DNA of 64,000 nt. Source: Minisyncoccota bacterium. GTDB taxonomy: Bacteria; Patescibacteriota; Minisyncoccia; JBAYJV01. Shown here one piece after another: positions 281 to 52,247 of this stretch (position 1 is its first letter; the number at the start of each line of letters is the position of its first letter). Location: positions 293,262 through 357,261 of the forward strand of contig JBAYJV010000001.1 of the NCBI GenBank assembly GCA_041664925.1, read 5' to 3'. The translations under genes and the position numbers were made by a program. The notes below the pieces were generated by a model, which was not told the DNA's origin, searched no databases, and worked only from the letters and a program-made list of their open reading frames with translations.

Positions 281-467
281 ACTAAATTTATTCTGAATTT
301 TAAAGTCTAAAGTCCCGTACCAGAATCGCTATGTCGTGGTTTTTGTATTTAAACAGATTTGGTACATAAACGAGAAGATTCGGTACGGGATATAAGAAAC
401 TCTAGATTCGTAAACTCACTAAGAATTTCTAATATCTAAAGTTTATAGTTTATGGTCTAAAGTTTTT

Positions 468-2114
468 CTAGGTAACTCTTTCGACCTCGTCTATACTCGT
501 AATGCCTTCCAATATTTTCAGATAACCATCTTGTTTCATTGTTATAAATCCCTGTTTTTTAAGAAGTGCCAAGATGTCGCTATTAGTTGCCCTGCTGAGC
601 ACAAGAGCTTCTATTTCTGAATTAATTGTAAAGATTTCAAAAATACCAATACGGCCACTATATCCCAACCCAAAACATTCTTCGCATCCCTTGGCTTGGT
701 ATATCTTTCCTATTGATGGGTATTTTTCTCTGTCTTTAATATCTTCTAAGTTTTTTTCGATACTCTTCCTTTCGTCGTCTGTTGGTATGTGTTCTTCTTT
801 ACAATGATCGCAAAGTTTGCGAACCAGTCTTTGGGCAATCACAAGTTTAAGCGCAGAAGTTACTGATTTTTCATCAGTGCCTAAATCGCGAAGTCGGGGA
901 ATCGCACCCGCCGCATCATTGGTATGAAGTGTCGAAAAAACTAAGTGTCCTGTTAGAGATGCTTGAATTGCCATATCTGCCGTTTCCCTGTCTCTAATTT
1001 CTCCGACCAAGATTATATCAGGATCTTGACGAACAATTGCTCTAAGAGCGTGGGAAAAATCATATCCTTCTTCGGCATTGATTTGAGATTGGGTTACGCC
1101 TTTAATTTGGTATTCTATCGGGTCTTCGGCTGTAATAATTTTTACTTCCGGATTGTTAATATGTTTTATAAAAGAATAAAGAGTTGTGGTTTTCCCTGAT
1201 CCAGTTGGTCCAGTTGTTAAAATCAATCCATTCGGTTCCTTCAATGCCTTTTTCACACTGCCAAACATAACATCTCGGATACCGAGACTTTCAATAGAAA
1301 GCCCGACAGCGCCTGTTCCTAAAATTCTCATCACAATTGTTTCGCCATCGGCTTCGGGAAGGATAGAAACACGAACATCTATTTTTCTTGTTTCGCCATT
1401 TTCTTCAGGAATATCAAAGCTAAAACGTCCATCTTGATTCGTATCGTGAATATTGATTTTAAGTCCCGATAAAATTTTAATGCGACTTAAAATGTGTTCA
1501 TAGTCGTTTCTTTTTATCTCAACAACATCGTGAAGAACGCCATCAACGCGGTATCTTAGTTTTACTTCATCAGCCTGCGGCTCAAAGTGAATATCTGATG
1601 CTTTTCCAAAATAAGCGCCAGCAATAATGATATTTAAAACTTCTGAAGTCAACGGGCTTAATATTTTTTCTTTAAGATTTCCTATATCTTTTATGCCTTG
1701 TTTCAAATCCTTAATCATCGCAGGGTCTAGCTTAAATGTCCCCTTGAGGCTTTGTTTCGGAGTAACATAGGTTGCGTAAATTTGCCAGGCTTTTTTCAGA
1801 CTTGAATCAGAAACAATAAAAATATCAAGATCATAGCCCTGCTCTCTTAATTTATCTAAAAATGTTGCTGTCGCTGGCAGTTCTGTGCTATAGACTACAA
1901 CTTCCAATCGGCGACCGACTTTTTGCACAATAGCAATCTTTGCTTGTTTCGATTCGTCTTCGGTTATAAGAGTAATCGCTTCTCTGTCTATCGGCGTAGA
2001 AGTAAGGTTTACATAGGGAAATCCTTCTTGTTGCGACCGCTCCTCGGCTCTTTTTTCTTCTTGTTCCCTCCTAATAATATTAAGCGGTAATTTCTTGTTT
2101 TCGTCGTAAAGCAT
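468..2114 (-). CDS. pilB: type II secretion / type IV pilus assembly ATPase (GspE/PilB family)
   Basis: Walker A GPTGSGKTTTLYS, Asp/His boxes, tetracysteine CDHC...C motif typical of GspE/PilB C-terminal domain; 548 aa. Confidence 0.8.
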   Translation of the reverse strand: MLYDENKKLPLNIIRREQEEKRAEERSQQEGFPYVNLTSTPIDREAITLITEDESKQAKIAIVQKVGRRLEVVVYSTELPATATFLDKLREQGYDLDIFIVSDSSLKKAWQIYATYVTPKQSLKGTFKLDPAMIKDLKQGIKDIGNLKEKILSPLTSEVLNIIIAGAYFGKASDIHFEPQADEVKLRYRVDGVLHDVVEIKRNDYEHILSRIKILSGLKINIHDTNQDGRFSFDIPEENGETRKIDVRVSILPEADGETIVMRILGTGAVGLSIESLGIRDVMFGSVKKALKEPNGLILTTGPTGSGKTTTLYSFIKHINNPEVKIITAEDPIEYQIKGVTQSQINAEEGYDFSHALRAIVRQDPDIILVGEIRDRETADMAIQASLTGHLVFSTLHTNDAAGAIPRLRDLGTDEKSVTSALKLVIAQRLVRKLCDHCKEEHIPTDDERKSIEKNLEDIKDREKYPSIGKIYQAKGCEECFGLGYSGRIGIFEIFTINSEIEALVLSRATNSDILALLKKQGFITMKQDGYLKILEGITSIDEVERVT

Positions 2115-2163
2115 ATTTTAATCTAAAAAATAAGGTAAAAATTGAAATAGCAATAAATATTTT

Positions 2164-2589
2164 TTATAACAAATCCTTGGGTTCTTTTCTTAAAATTTTC
2201 AATTTGTCAAAATCTTTATCGAAAGAAATAACTGTCATTTTTTTATTAAGAATGTCTGGGCAAGAAGCAATAAGCGCATCAATAAATTTTACATTATGTT
2301 TCTCGTATAGCTCAAGCATCACAGTAGCGTTGTGTTTGTCTCTTATTTTTAAATACTTCATTTCTGATATGCTTTTTAAGATTGTTGTTATCTGTTGTTT
2401 TTCCAGTCCATAAAAACTTTTTAGCGTCCACTGGATTTCTGCTAAAATTAAGGTCGAAATTGTTGCGCTAATTTCCCCTTGTTTAATTTTATTAAACAAA
2501 AGCTCGCAGTCCTTGGCGGATTGTTTATCGTCCTTGACGATCATTCGCAAAAAAATATTCGTATCAATAAAATAATTACCCTCTTTCAT
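2164..2589 (-). CDS. vapC: PIN-domain ribonuclease toxin (VapC-like)
   Basis: N-terminal YFIDTNIFL, conserved acidic residues (LAEI, FIDALIA, SFDKDF); 14-nt overlap with upstream antitoxin gene. Confidence 0.7.
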   Translation of the reverse strand: MKEGNYFIDTNIFLRMIVKDDKQSAKDCELLFNKIKQGEISATISTLILAEIQWTLKSFYGLEKQQITTILKSISEMKYLKIRDKHNATVMLELYEKHNVKFIDALIASCPDILNKKMTVISFDKDFDKLKILRKEPKDLL

Positions 2590-2815
2590 ATTTTTTTTCC
2601 ATCATTTCTCTAGCCAATAGAGGATCGGTTTTCTTTTTTATTATAATTTGTTCGGCAACTTTTATAAAATCTTTGACAGGCTTCACTTTAATAACTTTCT
2701 CGCCACGAGAAAAACTAACAGAAACTTTGTCTGTTCTTGTTAATCCAAAAATATCTCTGATTTTTTTAGGAATAGTGATTTGACCTTTTTGAGTCATTGC
2801 AGTAAAGTAAGTCAT
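2576..2815 (-). CDS. vapB: AbrB/MazE/SpoVT-type antitoxin (VapB-like)
   Basis: 79 aa, swapped-hairpin motif TQKGQITIPKKIRDIFGL; overlaps PIN gene start. Confidence 0.6.
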   Translation of the reverse strand: MTYFTAMTQKGQITIPKKIRDIFGLTRTDKVSVSFSRGEKVIKVKPVKDFIKVAEQIIIKKKTDPLLAREMMEKKYERG

Positions 2816-2891
2816 ATTATTAAATTCTTACTTAAAAATTAATTCTTACTTCTATTATAATCCTTACTTTGTATTATGTCAATGTCTAGCT

Positions 2892-3410
2892 TTACTCAGT
2901 GAATCTAAAAGTAGAAAGAATCTGATTATAAATATTCATGTATTTCTCGTGTGTTGCTTCGTGGGCATAGGCAACATAACTTATTGAATAAAACTTACTA
3001 TTCTTGCCTACTTTTGTAATAGTAGCTGGTCCAGAGCTTGGCGCAGCTCCTTCCTGCCATTGTCTTCCTTCTAGTCCTCCAAGTGTTACAATCTTATAGT
3101 TATCTTCTGGCAAGTAAGAGTCCGTGCTCACATCTATTCTTATAATATAATAAGAATTTTCATAAGAGTCCTCTATTCCCGTTATCAAAACCTTTTCTTG
3201 TGATGGATCTTCTTTTGTCAGCCCGATTTGATTTAGACCCTCACTGTTCAACTCCCACTCCCTTGGATACCACACTTCATATCCTAGTTCTCGATTTGTG
3301 TATTTTCCCCAATTCAGACTTTCTCCCTTTGGCCAAAAGAACCACGCAATGAAGACACCGACCGTAATGATTAACAAAGTCAGGGCAATGATGAAATTTT
3401 TTTTCTTCAT
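2892..3410 (-). CDS. hypothetical membrane-anchored/secreted protein
   Basis: N-terminal KKK + hydrophobic helix (signal anchor), no recognizable catalytic motif. Confidence 0.4.
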   Translation of the reverse strand: MKKKNFIIALTLLIITVGVFIAWFFWPKGESLNWGKYTNRELGYEVWYPREWELNSEGLNQIGLTKEDPSQEKVLITGIEDSYENSYYIIRIDVSTDSYLPEDNYKIVTLGGLEGRQWQEGAAPSSGPATITKVGKNSKFYSISYVAYAHEATHEKYMNIYNQILSTFRFTE

Positions 3411-4118: not shown

Positions 4119-5111
4119 ATGAAACGTTTGCTCATTATCGACTCTCACGCTCTTCTTCACCGCGCTTATCATGCGCTTCCTCCTTTAACTAATTCAAAAG
4201 GAGAACCCATAGGCGCAATCTACGGTTTCGCCTCAATCCTTGTTAGCAATATTGCCCAGCTAAAACCAGATTACCTTGTTGCCTGTTTTGATTTGCCTAA
4301 GCCAACTTTAAGGCATCAAAAATTTGCTGATTACAAAGCAAAAAGACCGAAAGCGCCAGATGATTTGATTGTTCAGTTTAAGCTTGTAAAGCGTTTCTTA
4401 AAAAATCTCGATATTCCTATTCTTGAAAAAGAAGGTTATGAGGCTGATGATGCGATTGGAACTGTTATCGCTCAAGTTACTCAAAAATATCCTGATATGG
4501 AAAATATTGTTTTAACAGGAGACTTAGATACGCTCCAGCTTATTAATAAAAATACCAAAATTCTCACTCCTAAACGCGGTATATCTGATCCGATTCTTTA
4601 TGACGAGAAAGAACTTGATAAAAAATACCCTGGACTTGAACCAAAGCACATTGTTGAATTTAAAGGATTAAAGGGAGATCAGTCTGATAATATTCCTGGC
4701 GTTCCCGGTATAGGAGAAAAAACTGCCCTAACGCTCATAAGGCGGTTTGGCAATCTTGAAAAACTTTATGAAACCGTAGAAAACGAAAAAGAAATTGAAC
4801 AATTGAAGAAAGAAAAAATTCTATCGGTTTCTGTTGTTAAAAAACTTAAGGAAAACAAAGACTTGGCCTTCTTTAGTCGAGAACTGGCAACAATTTATCG
4901 AGATGTACCCATTGAGTTCAACCTTAAAAACGCTTCCTGGGAACCAAATCCCGTTAGAGTTGAAAATGCCTTAATGGATTTTGGTCTTCGTTCTTTAGTA
5001 AGAAGATACCAAGCGATATCACAGGGAATTGAACTACCAAAATTTGAAAAAAAACCAGAAGAAAAAAAGGAAGAAAAAAAAGAACCCGTAAGGCAGCATT
5101 CTTTATTTTAA
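4119..5111 (+). CDS. stand-alone 5'-3' exonuclease (Pol I N-terminal/FEN-like domain)
   Basis: LIIDSHALLHRAYHALP start, acidic metal sites (EADD, TGDLD), helix-hairpin-helix GVPGIGEKTA; 330 aa without polymerase domain. Confidence 0.8.
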   Translation: MKRLLIIDSHALLHRAYHALPPLTNSKGEPIGAIYGFASILVSNIAQLKPDYLVACFDLPKPTLRHQKFADYKAKRPKAPDDLIVQFKLVKRFLKNLDIPILEKEGYEADDAIGTVIAQVTQKYPDMENIVLTGDLDTLQLINKNTKILTPKRGISDPILYDEKELDKKYPGLEPKHIVEFKGLKGDQSDNIPGVPGIGEKTALTLIRRFGNLEKLYETVENEKEIEQLKKEKILSVSVVKKLKENKDLAFFSRELATIYRDVPIEFNLKNASWEPNPVRVENALMDFGLRSLVRRYQAISQGIELPKFEKKPEEKKEEKKEPVRQHSLF

Positions 5112-5139
5112 GATTTATTAAACTCATTAAACAAATCTA

Positions 5140-6036
5140 ATGCCCGAACTTCCGGAAGTACAAACAACTGTCGATGAATTAAAAAAAGAAATTTTAGGTA
5201 TTGGTTTCTTGGACTTTTGGTGTGATTGGAAAAAGTCAGTAAAGAATCTGTCTCCCGATGAGTTTAAGAAGAAAATCAAGGGAGAAAAGATTTTAAATAT
5301 TTCACGCCGTGCCAAATTACTCGTTTTTAAATTAACGAATAACAAATTATTATTGGCTCATCAGAAAATGACTGGTCATTTTTTGGTTGGAACCTGGAAT
5401 TACCATCCCCGCGCCAAAAGAAAATGGCAGTCAACTGATATTGGCCATTTGCAAGATAAGGTTAATGACTATATTCATTTAATGTTTTGGCTGGACGATG
5501 GCCGACAACTTGCCTTCTCTGATTTGAGAAAATTCGGCTGGATCGCTTTTTATGAAAATATTGCGCTAGAAGATATTCCTGAAATTTCATTTTTGGGACC
5601 TGAGCCGCTAGATAAAAATTTTACGCCCAATATTTTTGAAAAACGACTAAAGAAAACTTCTCGTCCAATTAAACAGGCGATTATGGATCCAAAAATAGTT
5701 GTTGGTATTGGCAATATTTACGCTGACGAATCTCTTTTTTTAGCCCAGATTCACCCCCTAGCACCTGCAAATAGAATTCCTAAACAGAACATAAGGAAGC
5801 TTCTTTATGCAATCCAAAAAACTTTAAAAACTGCTATAAAACATAAAGGCACAACGATTCTTTCAGGAGCTGAGGAATACAGATTGCCCAGCGGAGAAAG
5901 AGGAAATTATCAGGATCAAACCCAAGTTTATCATCGGGAAAATCAACCCTGCCCAAGATGTGGTTCTAAAATTAAACGAATAAAAATCGGTCAGCGCAGC
6001 GCCCATTTTTGTCCAAAGTGCCAAAAAAGCGTATAA
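5140..6036 (+). CDS. mutM: formamidopyrimidine-DNA glycosylase (Fpg/MutM)
   Basis: N-terminal MPELPEVQ (catalytic Pro2/Glu3), H2TH region, C-terminal zinc finger CPRCGSKI...CPKCQ. Confidence 0.85.
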   Translation: MPELPEVQTTVDELKKEILGIGFLDFWCDWKKSVKNLSPDEFKKKIKGEKILNISRRAKLLVFKLTNNKLLLAHQKMTGHFLVGTWNYHPRAKRKWQSTDIGHLQDKVNDYIHLMFWLDDGRQLAFSDLRKFGWIAFYENIALEDIPEISFLGPEPLDKNFTPNIFEKRLKKTSRPIKQAIMDPKIVVGIGNIYADESLFLAQIHPLAPANRIPKQNIRKLLYAIQKTLKTAIKHKGTTILSGAEEYRLPSGERGNYQDQTQVYHRENQPCPRCGSKIKRIKIGQRSAHFCPKCQKSV

Positions 6037-6085
6037 AAAAAGATCCTCATTGGGTTTAACCCTCAAAGGATCTCTATCTCTGTTT

Positions 6086-6382
6086 CTAGCTGTCGCTGCT
6101 TGTTGCCTTGAGCGTGAGCGCCTCCGCTAGGCTTTCTACGCTCAATCCCCGTTTCAGTGCCTTCGGAAGCCACTCTCCAATCCACTTTCTCGGAGTTGTT
6201 GTAACCCTGCCTTCTCCTTTGCACCGATTGCAATCCGAGGAGCGATGGGAGGCACCGCAATCTCCACAGAGAAATTCTTCCGATTCGACTTCCGGACACT
6301 GACCCGTACCGTCACAGTGTGGACAAGACATGGTAAATTCCTCGTCCAGTAAAGCAGCAAGAACTGCTGTTCCTTTCTCCAC
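6086..6382 (-). CDS. small Cys-rich zinc-ribbon protein with DnaJ-type CxxCxGxG motifs (GTG start), GC-rich island
   Basis: AGGAGGT RBS 5 nt upstream of GTG; motifs CPHCDGTG, CGDCG, CNRCKGEG; local GC roughly 50% or more vs about one-third in flanks; other overlapping ORFs in this islet are frame artefacts of GC-richness. Confidence 0.45.
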   Translation of the reverse strand: MEKGTAVLAALLDEEFTMSCPHCDGTGQCPEVESEEFLCGDCGASHRSSDCNRCKGEGRVTTTPRKWIGEWLPKALKRGLSVESLAEALTLKATSSDS

Positions 6383-6434
6383 GAGATACCTCCTTATATT
6401 AATGCTATCTCCATTATAGCAAATTTAAATACAA

Positions 6435-7475
6435 ATGTCAAGAAAAAAGACTAAAAAAATTAAGGCCATTGGATTTTTAATAATATTATTGCCTTTGATT
6501 TTGTTTTTTGTATTGAGCAATAAAAATACAGAAATTAAAAAAGAATCATCGGAAACTCCTCCAACTCAAACACTAAATACAGATTTAAGTCCTATCTCGG
6601 GCTTGCCATGCAAAAATTACAATCGCCGACCTTTTGCCATTATGCTTGCCGGAGATGAAGTCGCTAGGCCTTTGTCCGGTCTTCAATCTGCTGACTTAGT
6701 TGTTGAAATGCCCGTTTTAATATCAGGCATGAATCGCTTAATGGCTGTGTATGTTTGTGGCAACCCAGAGGAAATTGGTAGTGTCCGATCAGCCAGACAT
6801 GATTTTATTCCTCTTGCTATGGGCCTTGATGCCATTTTTGCTCACTGGGGCGGATCTTCGTTTGCACTAGATAAGTTGAATGCCGGTATTATGGATAATA
6901 TCGACGCTCTTTTATACTCTCAAACGGCATTTTGGCGCCAATCTGGTATCCCAGCTCCTCACAATGGCTTTACTAGTATTGAAAAATTAACCAATCAGGC
7001 TAATAAACTTAATTATCGCATGGAGAACAAATTTGAAGGATACCCACACAAAAATGTCAAAATTCAAAGCTCAAATGTCAAAAGCAGGTTGATTATTGGT
7101 TATCCTGATATTAATAAAGTTTGGTGGGATTATAATCCCGAAACCAACGAATATGCAAGGTGGCGCGGATCAAAAGAAGAAAAAGACTATAATTCTAATC
7201 TTCAGGTTAAATCAAAAAATATTGTAGTCATGAGAGCTAATTCTCGTTTTATGGAAGATCAGTACATTGATGTTGATATTGAAGGAGAAGGAACTGCAGA
7301 ATTTTATTTAAATGGCCAAAAGATTGAAGGCACTTGGAAAAAAGAAGGTTCGTATCAGCCAACCAAACTTTATTTTTATGATAATCTTGGTAAAGAAATT
7401 GAGTTTGTGCCGGGACAAATTTGGATCGAGGTTATTGAGCCAGACAAAATTGTAACTTACGAAGAAATAAAATGA
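6435..7475 (+). CDS. hypothetical membrane-anchored extracytoplasmic protein (possibly DUF3048-like)
   Basis: N-terminal basic stretch + TM helix, no catalytic motif recognised; ATGA overlap with downstream holA. Confidence 0.35.
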   Translation: MSRKKTKKIKAIGFLIILLPLILFFVLSNKNTEIKKESSETPPTQTLNTDLSPISGLPCKNYNRRPFAIMLAGDEVARPLSGLQSADLVVEMPVLISGMNRLMAVYVCGNPEEIGSVRSARHDFIPLAMGLDAIFAHWGGSSFALDKLNAGIMDNIDALLYSQTAFWRQSGIPAPHNGFTSIEKLTNQANKLNYRMENKFEGYPHKNVKIQSSNVKSRLIIGYPDINKVWWDYNPETNEYARWRGSKEEKDYNSNLQVKSKNIVVMRANSRFMEDQYIDVDIEGEGTAEFYLNGQKIEGTWKKEGSYQPTKLYFYDNLGKEIEFVPGQIWIEVIEPDKIVTYEEIK

Positions 7476-50703: not shown

Positions 50704-51084
50704 TTAAGTGAAAAATTGACTCAAAACCTTGTCTTTTTTAAATTTCTTTATATTGCGATTAACTTGGCGATAAAAAGCGGGGTAGTGAGAACGATTAATA
50801 ATCTTTCTTCGCCACAATTGGCGATAGGGTGGTTTCTGACAATGAGCTAATTCGTGGGCTAGTGTTCGCAGAATAACGCTGGGTTTTTTGGGCCTTCTTT
50901 CTCGAGGTGAATAAAGATCTAGAACTACTTTTTTTGTTTTGAGATTAATATAGGCAATGCGGAAAGATCTTTTTGGATCTTTAATAGGTGATTTTCTTTT
51001 CATTGCCTGAAAATGAAAACCGGCAAGACTTAGAGTCTCACAGGTACGTTCAAAAAGAAACTGTCCCAGCTCTTCTTGCGTCAT
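50704..51084 (-). CDS. small HExxH protein (SprT/DUF45-like putative zinc metallopeptidase)
   Basis: LAHELAHC motif, 126 aa, basic. Confidence 0.4.
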
Positions 51085-52247
51085 GAGCCAAGGATTTTTT
51101 TAAGAGCCTCAACTTTGTCTGTTTTTTCCCAAGGAAGATTTAATTCTGGTCTGCCAAAATGACCATAACAAGCAACTTGGCGATAAAGTGGTCGCCTTAA
51201 TCCCAGGTGATGAATAATGGCTCCTGGTCTTAAGTCAAAAACTTTTTTGACTGCGCCTAAAATCTTTTTATCAGAGATTTTGCCGGTATCAAAAGTGTAA
51301 ACATCAATAGCCAATGGCTTTGCTATGCCGATGGCATAAGCAATTTGAACCTGACACTTATCAGCCAGATTGGCTGCAACAATGTTTTTTGCTACCCAGC
51401 GGGCAGCGTAAGAGCCTGTTCGATCAACTTTTGTCGGATCTTTTCCCGAAAAACAGCCTCCGCCATGAGAACCAACTCCGCCATAGGTATCAACAATAAT
51501 CTTTCTGCCCGTTAAGCCCGTGTCTGCGGCTGGGCCGCCCTTAACAAATCTGCCAGTTGGATTTACAAGAAATTTAGTTTCTTTATCAATAAGTTTTTTT
51601 GGCAAGATTGGTAACATAACTTTACTAATAATGTCTTTTTTTAGATCGGAAAGTTTGAATTCTGGATCATGTTGCGCAGAAACTAAAACAGTCTGAATTC
51701 TTGCTGGCAAACCATTCACATATTCAACTGTTACCTGAGATTTTCCATCTGGCCTCAAATATTTAATTTCTCCTGATTTTCTTACTTCAGATAATTTTTT
51801 GACCAAACGATGAGCTAAAACTATTGGAAGAGGCATTAGTTCTGGCGTTTCTTTCATAGCATAACCATACATCATACCTTGATCGCCTGCGCCGATATTG
51901 AGATCGTTAGGATCATCTACTCCCTGGGCAATATCCCGAGATTGTTCCTGAATAGCACAACTGATACCGCAGGTCTCCCAATCAAAACCAATGGAAGAAT
52001 TATTGTAACCGATATCCTTAATAACAGATCTAGTAATTTTAGGAATATCAACGTAACAATTCGTTGTCATTTCCCCGGCAATCATAACCATGCCATTGGT
52101 TAATAAAGCTTCCATTGCAACTCGCCCCATCGGATCTTGCCTCATAACATTGTCCAATATAGCATCAGAAATTTGATCAGCCATCTTATCGGGATGGCCT
52201 TCGGTAACTGACTCAGAAGTAATCAAATAGTCTCGATTATTTTTCAT
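51081..52247 (-). CDS. metK: S-adenosylmethionine synthetase
   Basis: [28 protein letters not shown], canonical MetK motifs. Confidence 0.95.

Follow-up and report, generated by a model that had tools for sequence, protein, structure and literature searches.

In the AT-rich genome of a Paceibacterota bacterium, a member of the Candidate Phyla Radiation (CPR), a short islet of DNA that is far richer in GC than its surroundings raises a simple question: is it an RNA gene, an accident of composition, or a gene for a protein? The islet lies in a 64 kb stretch of contig JBAYJV010000001.1, which we call the window, between fpg and a gene for a DUF3048 protein, and its minus strand carries a 98-codon open reading frame (ORF) for a Cys-rich protein, which we call the small gene. 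Judged by the way its codons are conserved in one other genome (contig L004), the islet is a protein-coding gene under purifying selection. As read from the sequence, it is also an autonomous unit of promoter, ribosome-binding site, ORF and terminator, with these signals conserved in L004. We consider it fairly probable that the whole is an autonomous cassette of foreign composition for a small acidic, cytosolic, predicted zinc-binding protein, inserted between fpg and the DUF3048 gene, and we propose for it an origin in a mobile element and a protein-binding role.

Composition and setting of the islet

Across the window, GC content averages 0.350, with a standard deviation of 0.040 in 300-nt windows. 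It is 0.516 for positions 6060-6400 and 0.535 for the small gene itself (6086-6382), and the most GC-rich 300-nt stretch in all 64 kb (0.537, about 4.7 standard deviations over the mean) begins exactly at 6086. At codon positions 1, 2 and 3 the GC content of the small gene is 0.566/0.535/0.505, versus 0.451/0.325/0.290 for the 50 window ORFs of at least 150 aa. When those 50 ORFs are read in 13,389 segments of 98 codons, third-position GC (GC3) is 0.289 +/- 0.051 with a maximum of 0.439, and total GC reaches at most 0.473; the small gene lies above all of them. An index similar to the codon adaptation index (CAI) is 0.556 for the small gene versus 0.698 +/- 0.026, with a minimum of 0.628, for the 50 ORFs.

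A preliminary description of this DNA had reported a GC-rich islet with a ribosome-binding site, a GTG start and a 98-codon ORF with CxxC motifs, convergent with fpg, and had called the codon usage atypical. All of these features are present, and the local plot of GC and codon usage agrees with the last point as well, with the most GC-rich 300-nt stretch starting at 6086 and with GC3 and the CAI-like index both outside the range of the 50 ORFs. The small gene is convergent with fpg (5140-6036, plus strand), whose product matches the Pfam families H2TH, Fapy_DNA_glyco and zf-FPG, and is divergent from the DUF3048 gene (6435-7475, plus strand).

The islet as a protein-coding gene

Islets of high GC in AT-rich genomes are often RNA genes, and the alternative that this one is a structured non-coding RNA gene, with the ORF a by-product of RNA-driven GC-richness, has two further points in its favor. 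The transcript folds better than shuffled sequences (z -3.8 with the terminator and -2.7 without it), and a promoter and a terminator are present. Against it, Rfam gave no family at the gathering threshold in the whole window and nothing overlapping the islet in 5900-6600 even at E up to 10, and ARAGORN found no tRNA or tmRNA. The corresponding transcript of L004 has a z of -1.8, which is not significant.

The conservation between the window and L004 is that of a protein. The closest homologue of the window protein, P0004 (89 aa), is its sole clear relative among 1.84e9 representative proteins (phmmer E 1.6e-17), with 47% identity over 78 residues aligned by BLAST and 53% over the stretch matched by phmmer. 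P0004 is encoded on L004, a Paceibacterota-type contig with the same gene order (DUF3048, small gene, fpg, 5'-3' exonuclease, tsaE), where the proteins on either side share 67% and 71% identity with their counterparts in the window. In a codon alignment of the two small genes, identity is 0.60, 0.71 and 0.29 at positions 1, 2 and 3, different codons are used at 25 of the 38 identical residues, and both indels are whole codons. Of the six frames, that of the small gene alone lacks stops in both genomes, and its ratio of nonsynonymous to synonymous differences (pN/pS, 0.38) is the lowest. All 7 Cys, an LLDEEF motif and a W-x-GEW-x-P motif are conserved between the window protein and P0004. We reject the RNA gene because conservation follows the codon positions, with the third position at the level expected at random; the ribosome-binding site and the start codon are conserved as well, and we find an RNA gene hardly credible here. 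The coding reading of the preliminary description is thus upheld both by the null scans for Rfam families, tRNAs and tmRNA and by a syntenic homologue with a pattern of purifying selection.

One further ORF in the islet was considered and set aside. The antisense ORF at 6108-6302 on the plus strand is 57% identical over 30 aa to its counterpart in L004, but we regard it as a shadow of the sense frame: it is interrupted by stops in each of the two genomes, its start is not conserved, Pfam has no match to it, and its wobble positions coincide with those of the sense frame. Because these positions are shared, the antisense ORF mimics coding conservation, which is a trap for coding tests based on codon positions. 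The overlapping ORFs in other frames had been dismissed as artefacts, and each proves to have stops in the homologue or to be an antisense shadow with shared wobble positions.

Expression signals

Upstream of the small gene is a predicted sigma-70 promoter at 6413..6441 (minus strand), with TTGACA at 6441..6436, a 17-nt spacer and an extended -10 element, TGcTATAAT, at 6421..6413, so that it matches the consensus at 12/12 positions and has the TG motif. Such 12/12 matches are rare by chance, with 2 observed in the 64 kb versus 0.03 expected from Markov-1 simulations. The -35 element overlaps the ATG (6435-6437) of the divergent DUF3048 gene. At the equivalent place L004 has TTGACT-17-TATAAT with a TG (11/12), and 11 of the 17 spacer bases are identical between the two genomes in a hand alignment. 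A Shine-Dalgarno sequence read as AGGAGGT stands at 6388..6394 (minus strand), with a 5-nt spacer to the GTG at 6382..6380, and its L004 equivalent is AGGAGG, 5 nt upstream of an ATG start. The coding sequence for the 98-aa Cys-rich protein, taken from the ORF list and the homologue, runs over 6086..6382 (minus strand) and ends in a TAG stop at 6088..6086. It is followed by a predicted intrinsic terminator at 6035..6076 (minus strand), a hairpin (inverted repeat I2 at 6041-6073) and then UUUUUUU. The minus-strand hairpin has a folding energy of -18.4 kcal/mol (z -4.4) and its plus-strand counterpart one of -14.1 kcal/mol. The plus-strand A-run of the terminator overlaps the fpg stop codon, and hence the hairpin lies directly 3' of fpg too. 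At the same place L004 has a different hairpin, of -28.8 kcal/mol, and a U-run. The whole inserted cassette, from the fpg stop to the DUF3048 start, is 398 nt (6037..6434).

No sigma-70 promoter with at least 9/12 matches and no Shine-Dalgarno sequence was found in the 52 nt that precede the DUF3048 start codon (6383-6434, plus strand). Transcription of the DUF3048 gene in the window may rely on read-through from fpg against the predicted strong antisense promoter.

The second 12/12 promoter in the window is at 2854-2882 (minus strand), just upstream of an AbrB/MazE-type antitoxin gene (2576-2815, minus strand) that is followed by a PIN-domain gene, so both perfect promoters in the window are predicted to drive accessory-type genes.

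Start codon and public gene call

The exact protein is present in public collections. Three contigs that encode the identical protein are also identical in DNA and are therefore uninformative on selection. In the NCBI records MFA6436929.1 and MFA6896025.1 the protein is called as 81 aa, starting at M18. This start would leave out a predicted N-terminal helix (residues 1-17, at 6332..6382 on the minus strand) that contains the LLDEEF motif and is conserved in P0004. Given that LLDEEF is identical in P0004 although it lies upstream of M18, and that P0004 has no internal Met at the position equivalent to M18, we consider the 98-aa form with the GTG start to be right and the NCBI call to be too short. 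The position of the Shine-Dalgarno sequence also indicates the 98-aa start. The public gene call can thus be corrected from 81 aa to 98 aa.

Insertion, distribution and history

In distant Paceibacteria and Moranbacteria (L014-L018), fpg is followed on the same strand by the DUF3048 gene, with a gap of about 10-95 nt. Closer relatives were obtained from a metagenome scan with a DUF3048 alignment. The congener L030 has a DUF3048 protein 86% identical to that of the window and a DNA identity of 86.5% across 3.4 kb, and the identity of 0.635 at fourfold sites shows that these are unsaturated. The first 44 nt of L030 are the 3' end of fpg, with its stop 4 nt before the DUF3048 ATG, and there is no cassette. 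L035, with a DUF3048 protein 80% identical to that of L004 and a gap of 20 nt between fpg and the DUF3048 gene, has no cassette either. Because fpg abuts the DUF3048 gene in these relatives, the cassette is best described as a lineage-restricted insertion of patchy distribution that split an ancestral fpg-DUF3048 pair. Horizontal acquisition had been suggested from composition, and the cassette-free junctions of the relatives, including a congener, are stronger evidence for it.

A neighbour-joining tree of DUF3048 proteins has the topology (window, L030), (L034, (L035, (L004, (L033, L031/L032)))). This tree is compatible with a single old gain and then two or more clean losses plus a rearrangement, and also with two gains at the same junction. 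For a single gain speak the shared site, orientation and architecture of the window and L004 cassettes, their similar promoter spacers, and the location of the -35 element within the 5' codons of the DUF3048 gene in both; moreover, no mechanism is known to us by which two insertions would be targeted to one spot. For two gains speak parsimony and the uninterrupted junctions of L030 and L035, as well as the GC3 of the window copy, which is unameliorated (0.505 versus 0.356 in L004) despite near-saturated synonymous sites between the lineages. Fourfold identity between the window and L004 in the flanking genes is 0.33-0.39. A rough calculation suggests that one old gain from a donor of very high GC3 could still leave such GC3 values.

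At the same junction the Paceibacterota relative L037 has a different inserted gene (1523-1936), which encodes a 137-aa protein of the GxxExxY family (TIGR04256, E 1.8e-25) and is co-directional with its neighbors, so the junction evidently tolerates insertions; it seems to tolerate or to attract them. A second variable accessory slot in the otherwise syntenic region lies beyond tsaE, where the window has a MazE-PIN toxin-antitoxin pair (about 2150-2815) and L004 a HicB-HicA pair (4847-5327).

Distant relatives and origin

Full phmmer and word-indexed searches recovered P0004 and four marginal matches only. A metagenome scan with an alignment of the small protein found no homologue, and a scan of viral contigs found only bona fide DnaJ and proteins with multiple CxxCxGxG motifs, similar at the level of the motif. 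In the more distant relatives P0007 (108 aa) and P0008 (102 aa), the same outer CxxCxGxG pair and a W-I helix after it lead into an XRE-type helix-turn-helix (HTH) domain. The window protein, with its C-terminus KRGLSVESLAEAL, can be aligned with these two proteins as far as the first HTH helices, where it ends, and the L004 protein ends earlier still.

The contigs that carry P0007 and P0008 have 59-61% GC and those of P0005 59-68%. The neighbors of P0007 on its contig (L020) are genes for a RuvC-like phage resolvase, DNA methyltransferases, PAPS reductase, a Mom-like protein and a ParB-like protein. P0008 (on L021) stands beside HicAB and PAAR-motif genes, a weaker phage indication that comes from precomputed Pfam matches only. 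From these similarities and compositions we infer that the cassette may have come from a mobile element or phage of a high-GC host.

Several observations weigh against our preferred interpretation. Selection was measured on a single pair of genes, for which synonymous divergence (dS) is saturated. At the cassette there are no convincing terminal inverted repeats or target-site duplications, and no mobile-element genes flank it. A tblastn search of 50,697 deposited phage genomes with P0001 and P0007 found no homologue, and the link to the phage proteins that combine a zinc finger with an HTH has an E of only about 1e-3 and is dominated by the Cys/Gly motif. Finally, all matches of the window protein to named families fall below the curated cut-offs.

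Protein properties and predicted fold

The window protein has 98 aa and a mass of about 10.5 kDa, with an isoelectric point (pI) of 4.96, a net charge of -5.4, 7 Cys and no hydrophobic segment. Its Cys-rich core (residues 20-58, at 6209..6325 on the minus strand) contains CPHCDGTG (residues 20-27), a lone Cys29, CGDCG (39-43) and CNRCKGEG (51-58), and is a putative zinc-binding hairpin of the type seen in the cysteine-rich (CR) domain of DnaJ. Every one of the aligned family members (5/5) has the outer CxxCxGxG pair unchanged. We consider the window protein probably a zinc-binding Cys-rich protein.

The matches to named Pfam families are to DUF6758 (PF20544; 19.7 bits versus a cut-off of 27, E 5.7e-4, covering profile positions 5-75 of 208 only), to DnaJ_CXXCXGXG (PF00684; 17.0 bits versus a gathering threshold of 32.7, E 0.0074, with 19.9 bits for P0004) and to the Anti-TRAP family of Pfam (PF15777; 11.9 bits versus a cut-off of 32). 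The best NCBIfam match, TIGR02349 DnaJ_bact, is very weak (20 bits versus a cut-off of 377), and RtpA (NF058604) scores 14.4 bits versus a cut-off of 65. The PHROG matches (PHROGs 15035, 8027 and 20107) have an E of about 1e-3 and fall in families of unknown function, and a PADLOC scan for defence systems gave nothing meaningful. With E up to 1 allowed, Pfam gave no J-domain match, and the protein matches no HTH family. P0006, a marginal phmmer match of the window protein (E 6.4e-4 in 1.8e9 proteins), passes the Pfam thresholds of both DnaJ_CXXCXGXG and Anti-TRAP. The literature on CxxCxGxG in phages and on DUF6758 yielded nothing functional.

Comparison of profiles brings the resemblance out more clearly. 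An alignment of the five family members matches DnaJ CR domains in hhalign with 94.2% probability and an E of 1.1e-7 over 50 columns, pairing CPHCDGTG, CGDCG and CNRCKGEG with DnaJ CR repeats 2, 3 and 4; both profiles are shallow and rich in motifs, and one DnaJ CR row was entered by hand, so we take this match as support and not as proof. An AlphaFold2 model (predicted local distance difference test, pLDDT, 72.9; predicted template modelling score, pTM, 0.55) has a helix at residues 2-12, a beta-hairpin with Cys knuckles (strands at 16-19 and 59-62), and helices at 64-77 and 82-95. In a Foldseek search of the PDB the top matches to this model were DnaJ CR domains and anti-TRAP, all non-significant; anti-TRAP structures (2bx9/3lcz) were the second and third matches, with E of 0.85-1.2 and template modelling (TM) scores of 0.46-0.48 normalised to the target. 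Matches in BFVD were small phage proteins, uncharacterised or DnaJ-like, and non-significant. The window protein thus resembles the zinc-knuckle class of the DnaJ CR domain and anti-TRAP, and lies below every curated family threshold. The DnaJ-type zinc finger of the preliminary description holds in the same sense, as a resemblance.

Proposed role and alternative explanations

Returning to the cassette as a possible mobile-element insertion for a putative protein-binding factor, we can propose how it might act. The protein, expressed from what would be a strong constitutive promoter, would have one helix at its N-terminus and two at its C-terminus, with a Cys7 zinc-binding hairpin of the DnaJ CR (CxxCxGxG) type between them. 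Together, the zinc-stabilised hairpin and its flanking helices could bind a partner protein and so titrate or inhibit it, as anti-TRAP does with the same kind of zinc knuckle. By this analogy we suggest tentatively, and with well short of even confidence, that titration or inhibition of a partner is the function of the protein. DNA binding is less likely because the protein is acidic and its HTH is incomplete. The preliminary description mentioned an anti-TRAP-like or phage-derived function; this is speculation, and rests on the phage-like genomic context of one of the two relatives with a zinc finger and an HTH and on sub-threshold PHROG matches.

A more far-reaching version of this interpretation, which we think unlikely if less so than the other alternatives, holds that the cassette can itself move, or that the fpg|DUF3048 junction is a hot spot of recombination. 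On this view the lineages of the window and L004, whose nearest sampled relatives (L030 and L035) are uninterrupted, acquired homologous cassettes independently, and the role of the zinc-finger protein would be that of a conflict factor that might, for instance, inhibit a protein of a phage or of the host. If independent entry were true, it would mean that single-gene cassettes move in CPR genomes by an unrecognised, integrase-free route. Rather improbable, in our estimate, is that the small gene is a decaying relic, left from the N-terminal part of a phage regulator with a zinc finger and an HTH that has lost its DNA-binding domain, and that it has no function itself. It would explain why the C-terminus, RGLSVESLAEAL, can be aligned to P0007 and P0008 only as far as the beginning of their HTH, with the L004 protein shorter still, why the distribution is so narrow and patchy (two species in 1.8e9 representative proteins, and a congener, L030, without the cassette), and why the protein diverges faster than its neighbors (47% versus 67-71% identity). 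A relic would not be expected, however, to keep an open frame, 7 Cys, LLDEEF and W-x-GEW-x-P while synonymous sites became saturated (pN/pS 0.38), nor to have its promoter, Shine-Dalgarno sequence and terminator maintained in both lineages.

Ranking next below the relic is a stand-alone chaperone or thiol-disulfide factor of DnaJ CR type, which would hold unfolded clients or exchange disulfides. Plants have one-domain DnaJ-type zinc-finger proteins that are an analogue of such a factor, and the CxxCxGxG motifs, the profile alignment to DnaJ CR repeats 2-4 and the very weak match to TIGR02349 DnaJ_bact, the best in NCBIfam, all point in this direction. Yet the protein has 7 Cys and not 8, with two full CxxCxGxG repeats only, it has neither a J domain nor a client-binding domain, its scores are far under the cut-offs, and a patchy accessory gene is unlikely to be a core chaperone. 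Less probable again is a nucleic-acid-binding regulator, either a zinc-ribbon transcription factor or a translational regulator like Com of phage Mu. P0007 and P0008 carry an HTH, P0007 is encoded two genes from a Mom-like gene, and there are sub-threshold PHROG matches to Q-like antiterminators; on the other side, the HTH-bearing relatives are basic (pI 8.4-9.1) whereas the window protein has a pI of 4.96 and a charge of -5.4, and its HTH is incomplete with no match to an HTH family. We consider it very improbable that the cassette acts mainly in cis, with its antisense promoter and terminator interrupting the fpg-DUF3048 unit and tuning DUF3048 or fpg through termination or transcriptional interference, and the peptide of secondary importance. 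The arrangement itself would suit such a role, since fpg and the DUF3048 gene are adjacent and co-directional in relatives, a perfect promoter faces read-through from fpg with its -35 element over the DUF3048 start codon, and the DUF3048 gene lacks a promoter of at least 9/12 in 6383-6434. A purely cis function leaves the conservation of the ORF at the protein level unexplained.

Neighboring genes and other features of the window

Besides fpg and the DUF3048 gene, the neighbors of the cassette in the window are genes for a 5'-3' exonuclease, tsaE, holA, S20, truB and uvrB. Upstream of fpg the window (4119-5111), L004 and L006 all have a stand-alone 5'-3' exonuclease of 330 aa, and at the same position (about 340-3080) the distant relatives L015-L018 have a full-length PolA-like ORF of 850-912 aa.

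The second-highest GC peak in the window, at 51368-51575 (0.553 over 150 nt), lies inside a 388-aa ORF (51081-52247, minus strand) that we take, by eye, to be S-adenosylmethionine synthetase (MetK). The peak looks like the ordinary conserved Gly-rich core of that gene and not like a separate feature.

Significance

In a CPR genome, a compositional islet has turned out to be a real small gene, under selection as judged from its homologue, and neither an RNA gene nor an artefact. Accessory genes are scarce in such a reduced genome, and here a single gene appears to have been cleanly inserted together with a full set of expression signals. Its patchy occurrence at one junction could show how single genes come and go in CPR bacteria. 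If the protein inhibits a host or phage protein, it would be a CPR example of the small zinc-knuckle regulators typified by anti-TRAP.

Comparison with known systems

The CR domain of DnaJ/Hsp40 (PF00684; 1exk, 2ctt) has four CxxCxGxG repeats with 8 Cys and two Zn centres in a V-shaped hairpin fold. In comparison, the window protein has 7 conserved Cys, two full repeats and one CGDCG, and its second repeat is reduced to Cys29. It also differs from DnaJ in that it lacks the J domain (HPD), the G/F region and the C-terminal client-binding domains, and instead stands alone at 98 aa, its core flanked by helices. The absence of a J domain means that it is not a DnaJ.

Anti-TRAP is a protein of about 53 aa with a single Zn(Cys)4 site. 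Like anti-TRAP (RtpA; PF15777, NF058604), which acts by binding another protein, the window protein is small and stand-alone with a zinc knuckle that resembles that of DnaJ CR. Anti-TRAP belongs to the trp regulon of Bacillus, in contrast to the window locus, where there is no hint of a link to trp. With P0007 and P0008 the window protein shares the outer CPxCxGxG...CxRCxGxGxV pair, followed by W-I and a helix, at a similarity of E about 1e-3. Those two proteins are basic, have a complete HTH and lack the inner three Cys, whereas the window protein is acidic, has the extra N-terminal LLDEEF helix and ends after HTH helix 2.

As a genetic unit, the cassette is most readily compared with phage morons, which are autonomous units of promoter, gene and terminator with atypical composition, known from lambdoid phages. 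Like them, it has its own consensus promoter and its own predicted intrinsic terminator around a single ORF, a deviant GC content and an orientation opposite to that of its neighbors. Unlike them, it lies outside a prophage, between the housekeeping gene fpg and DUF3048/holA in a CPR chromosome. Set beside these known systems, the small gene is an orphan-like accessory gene of a familiar structural class and not a new kind of system.

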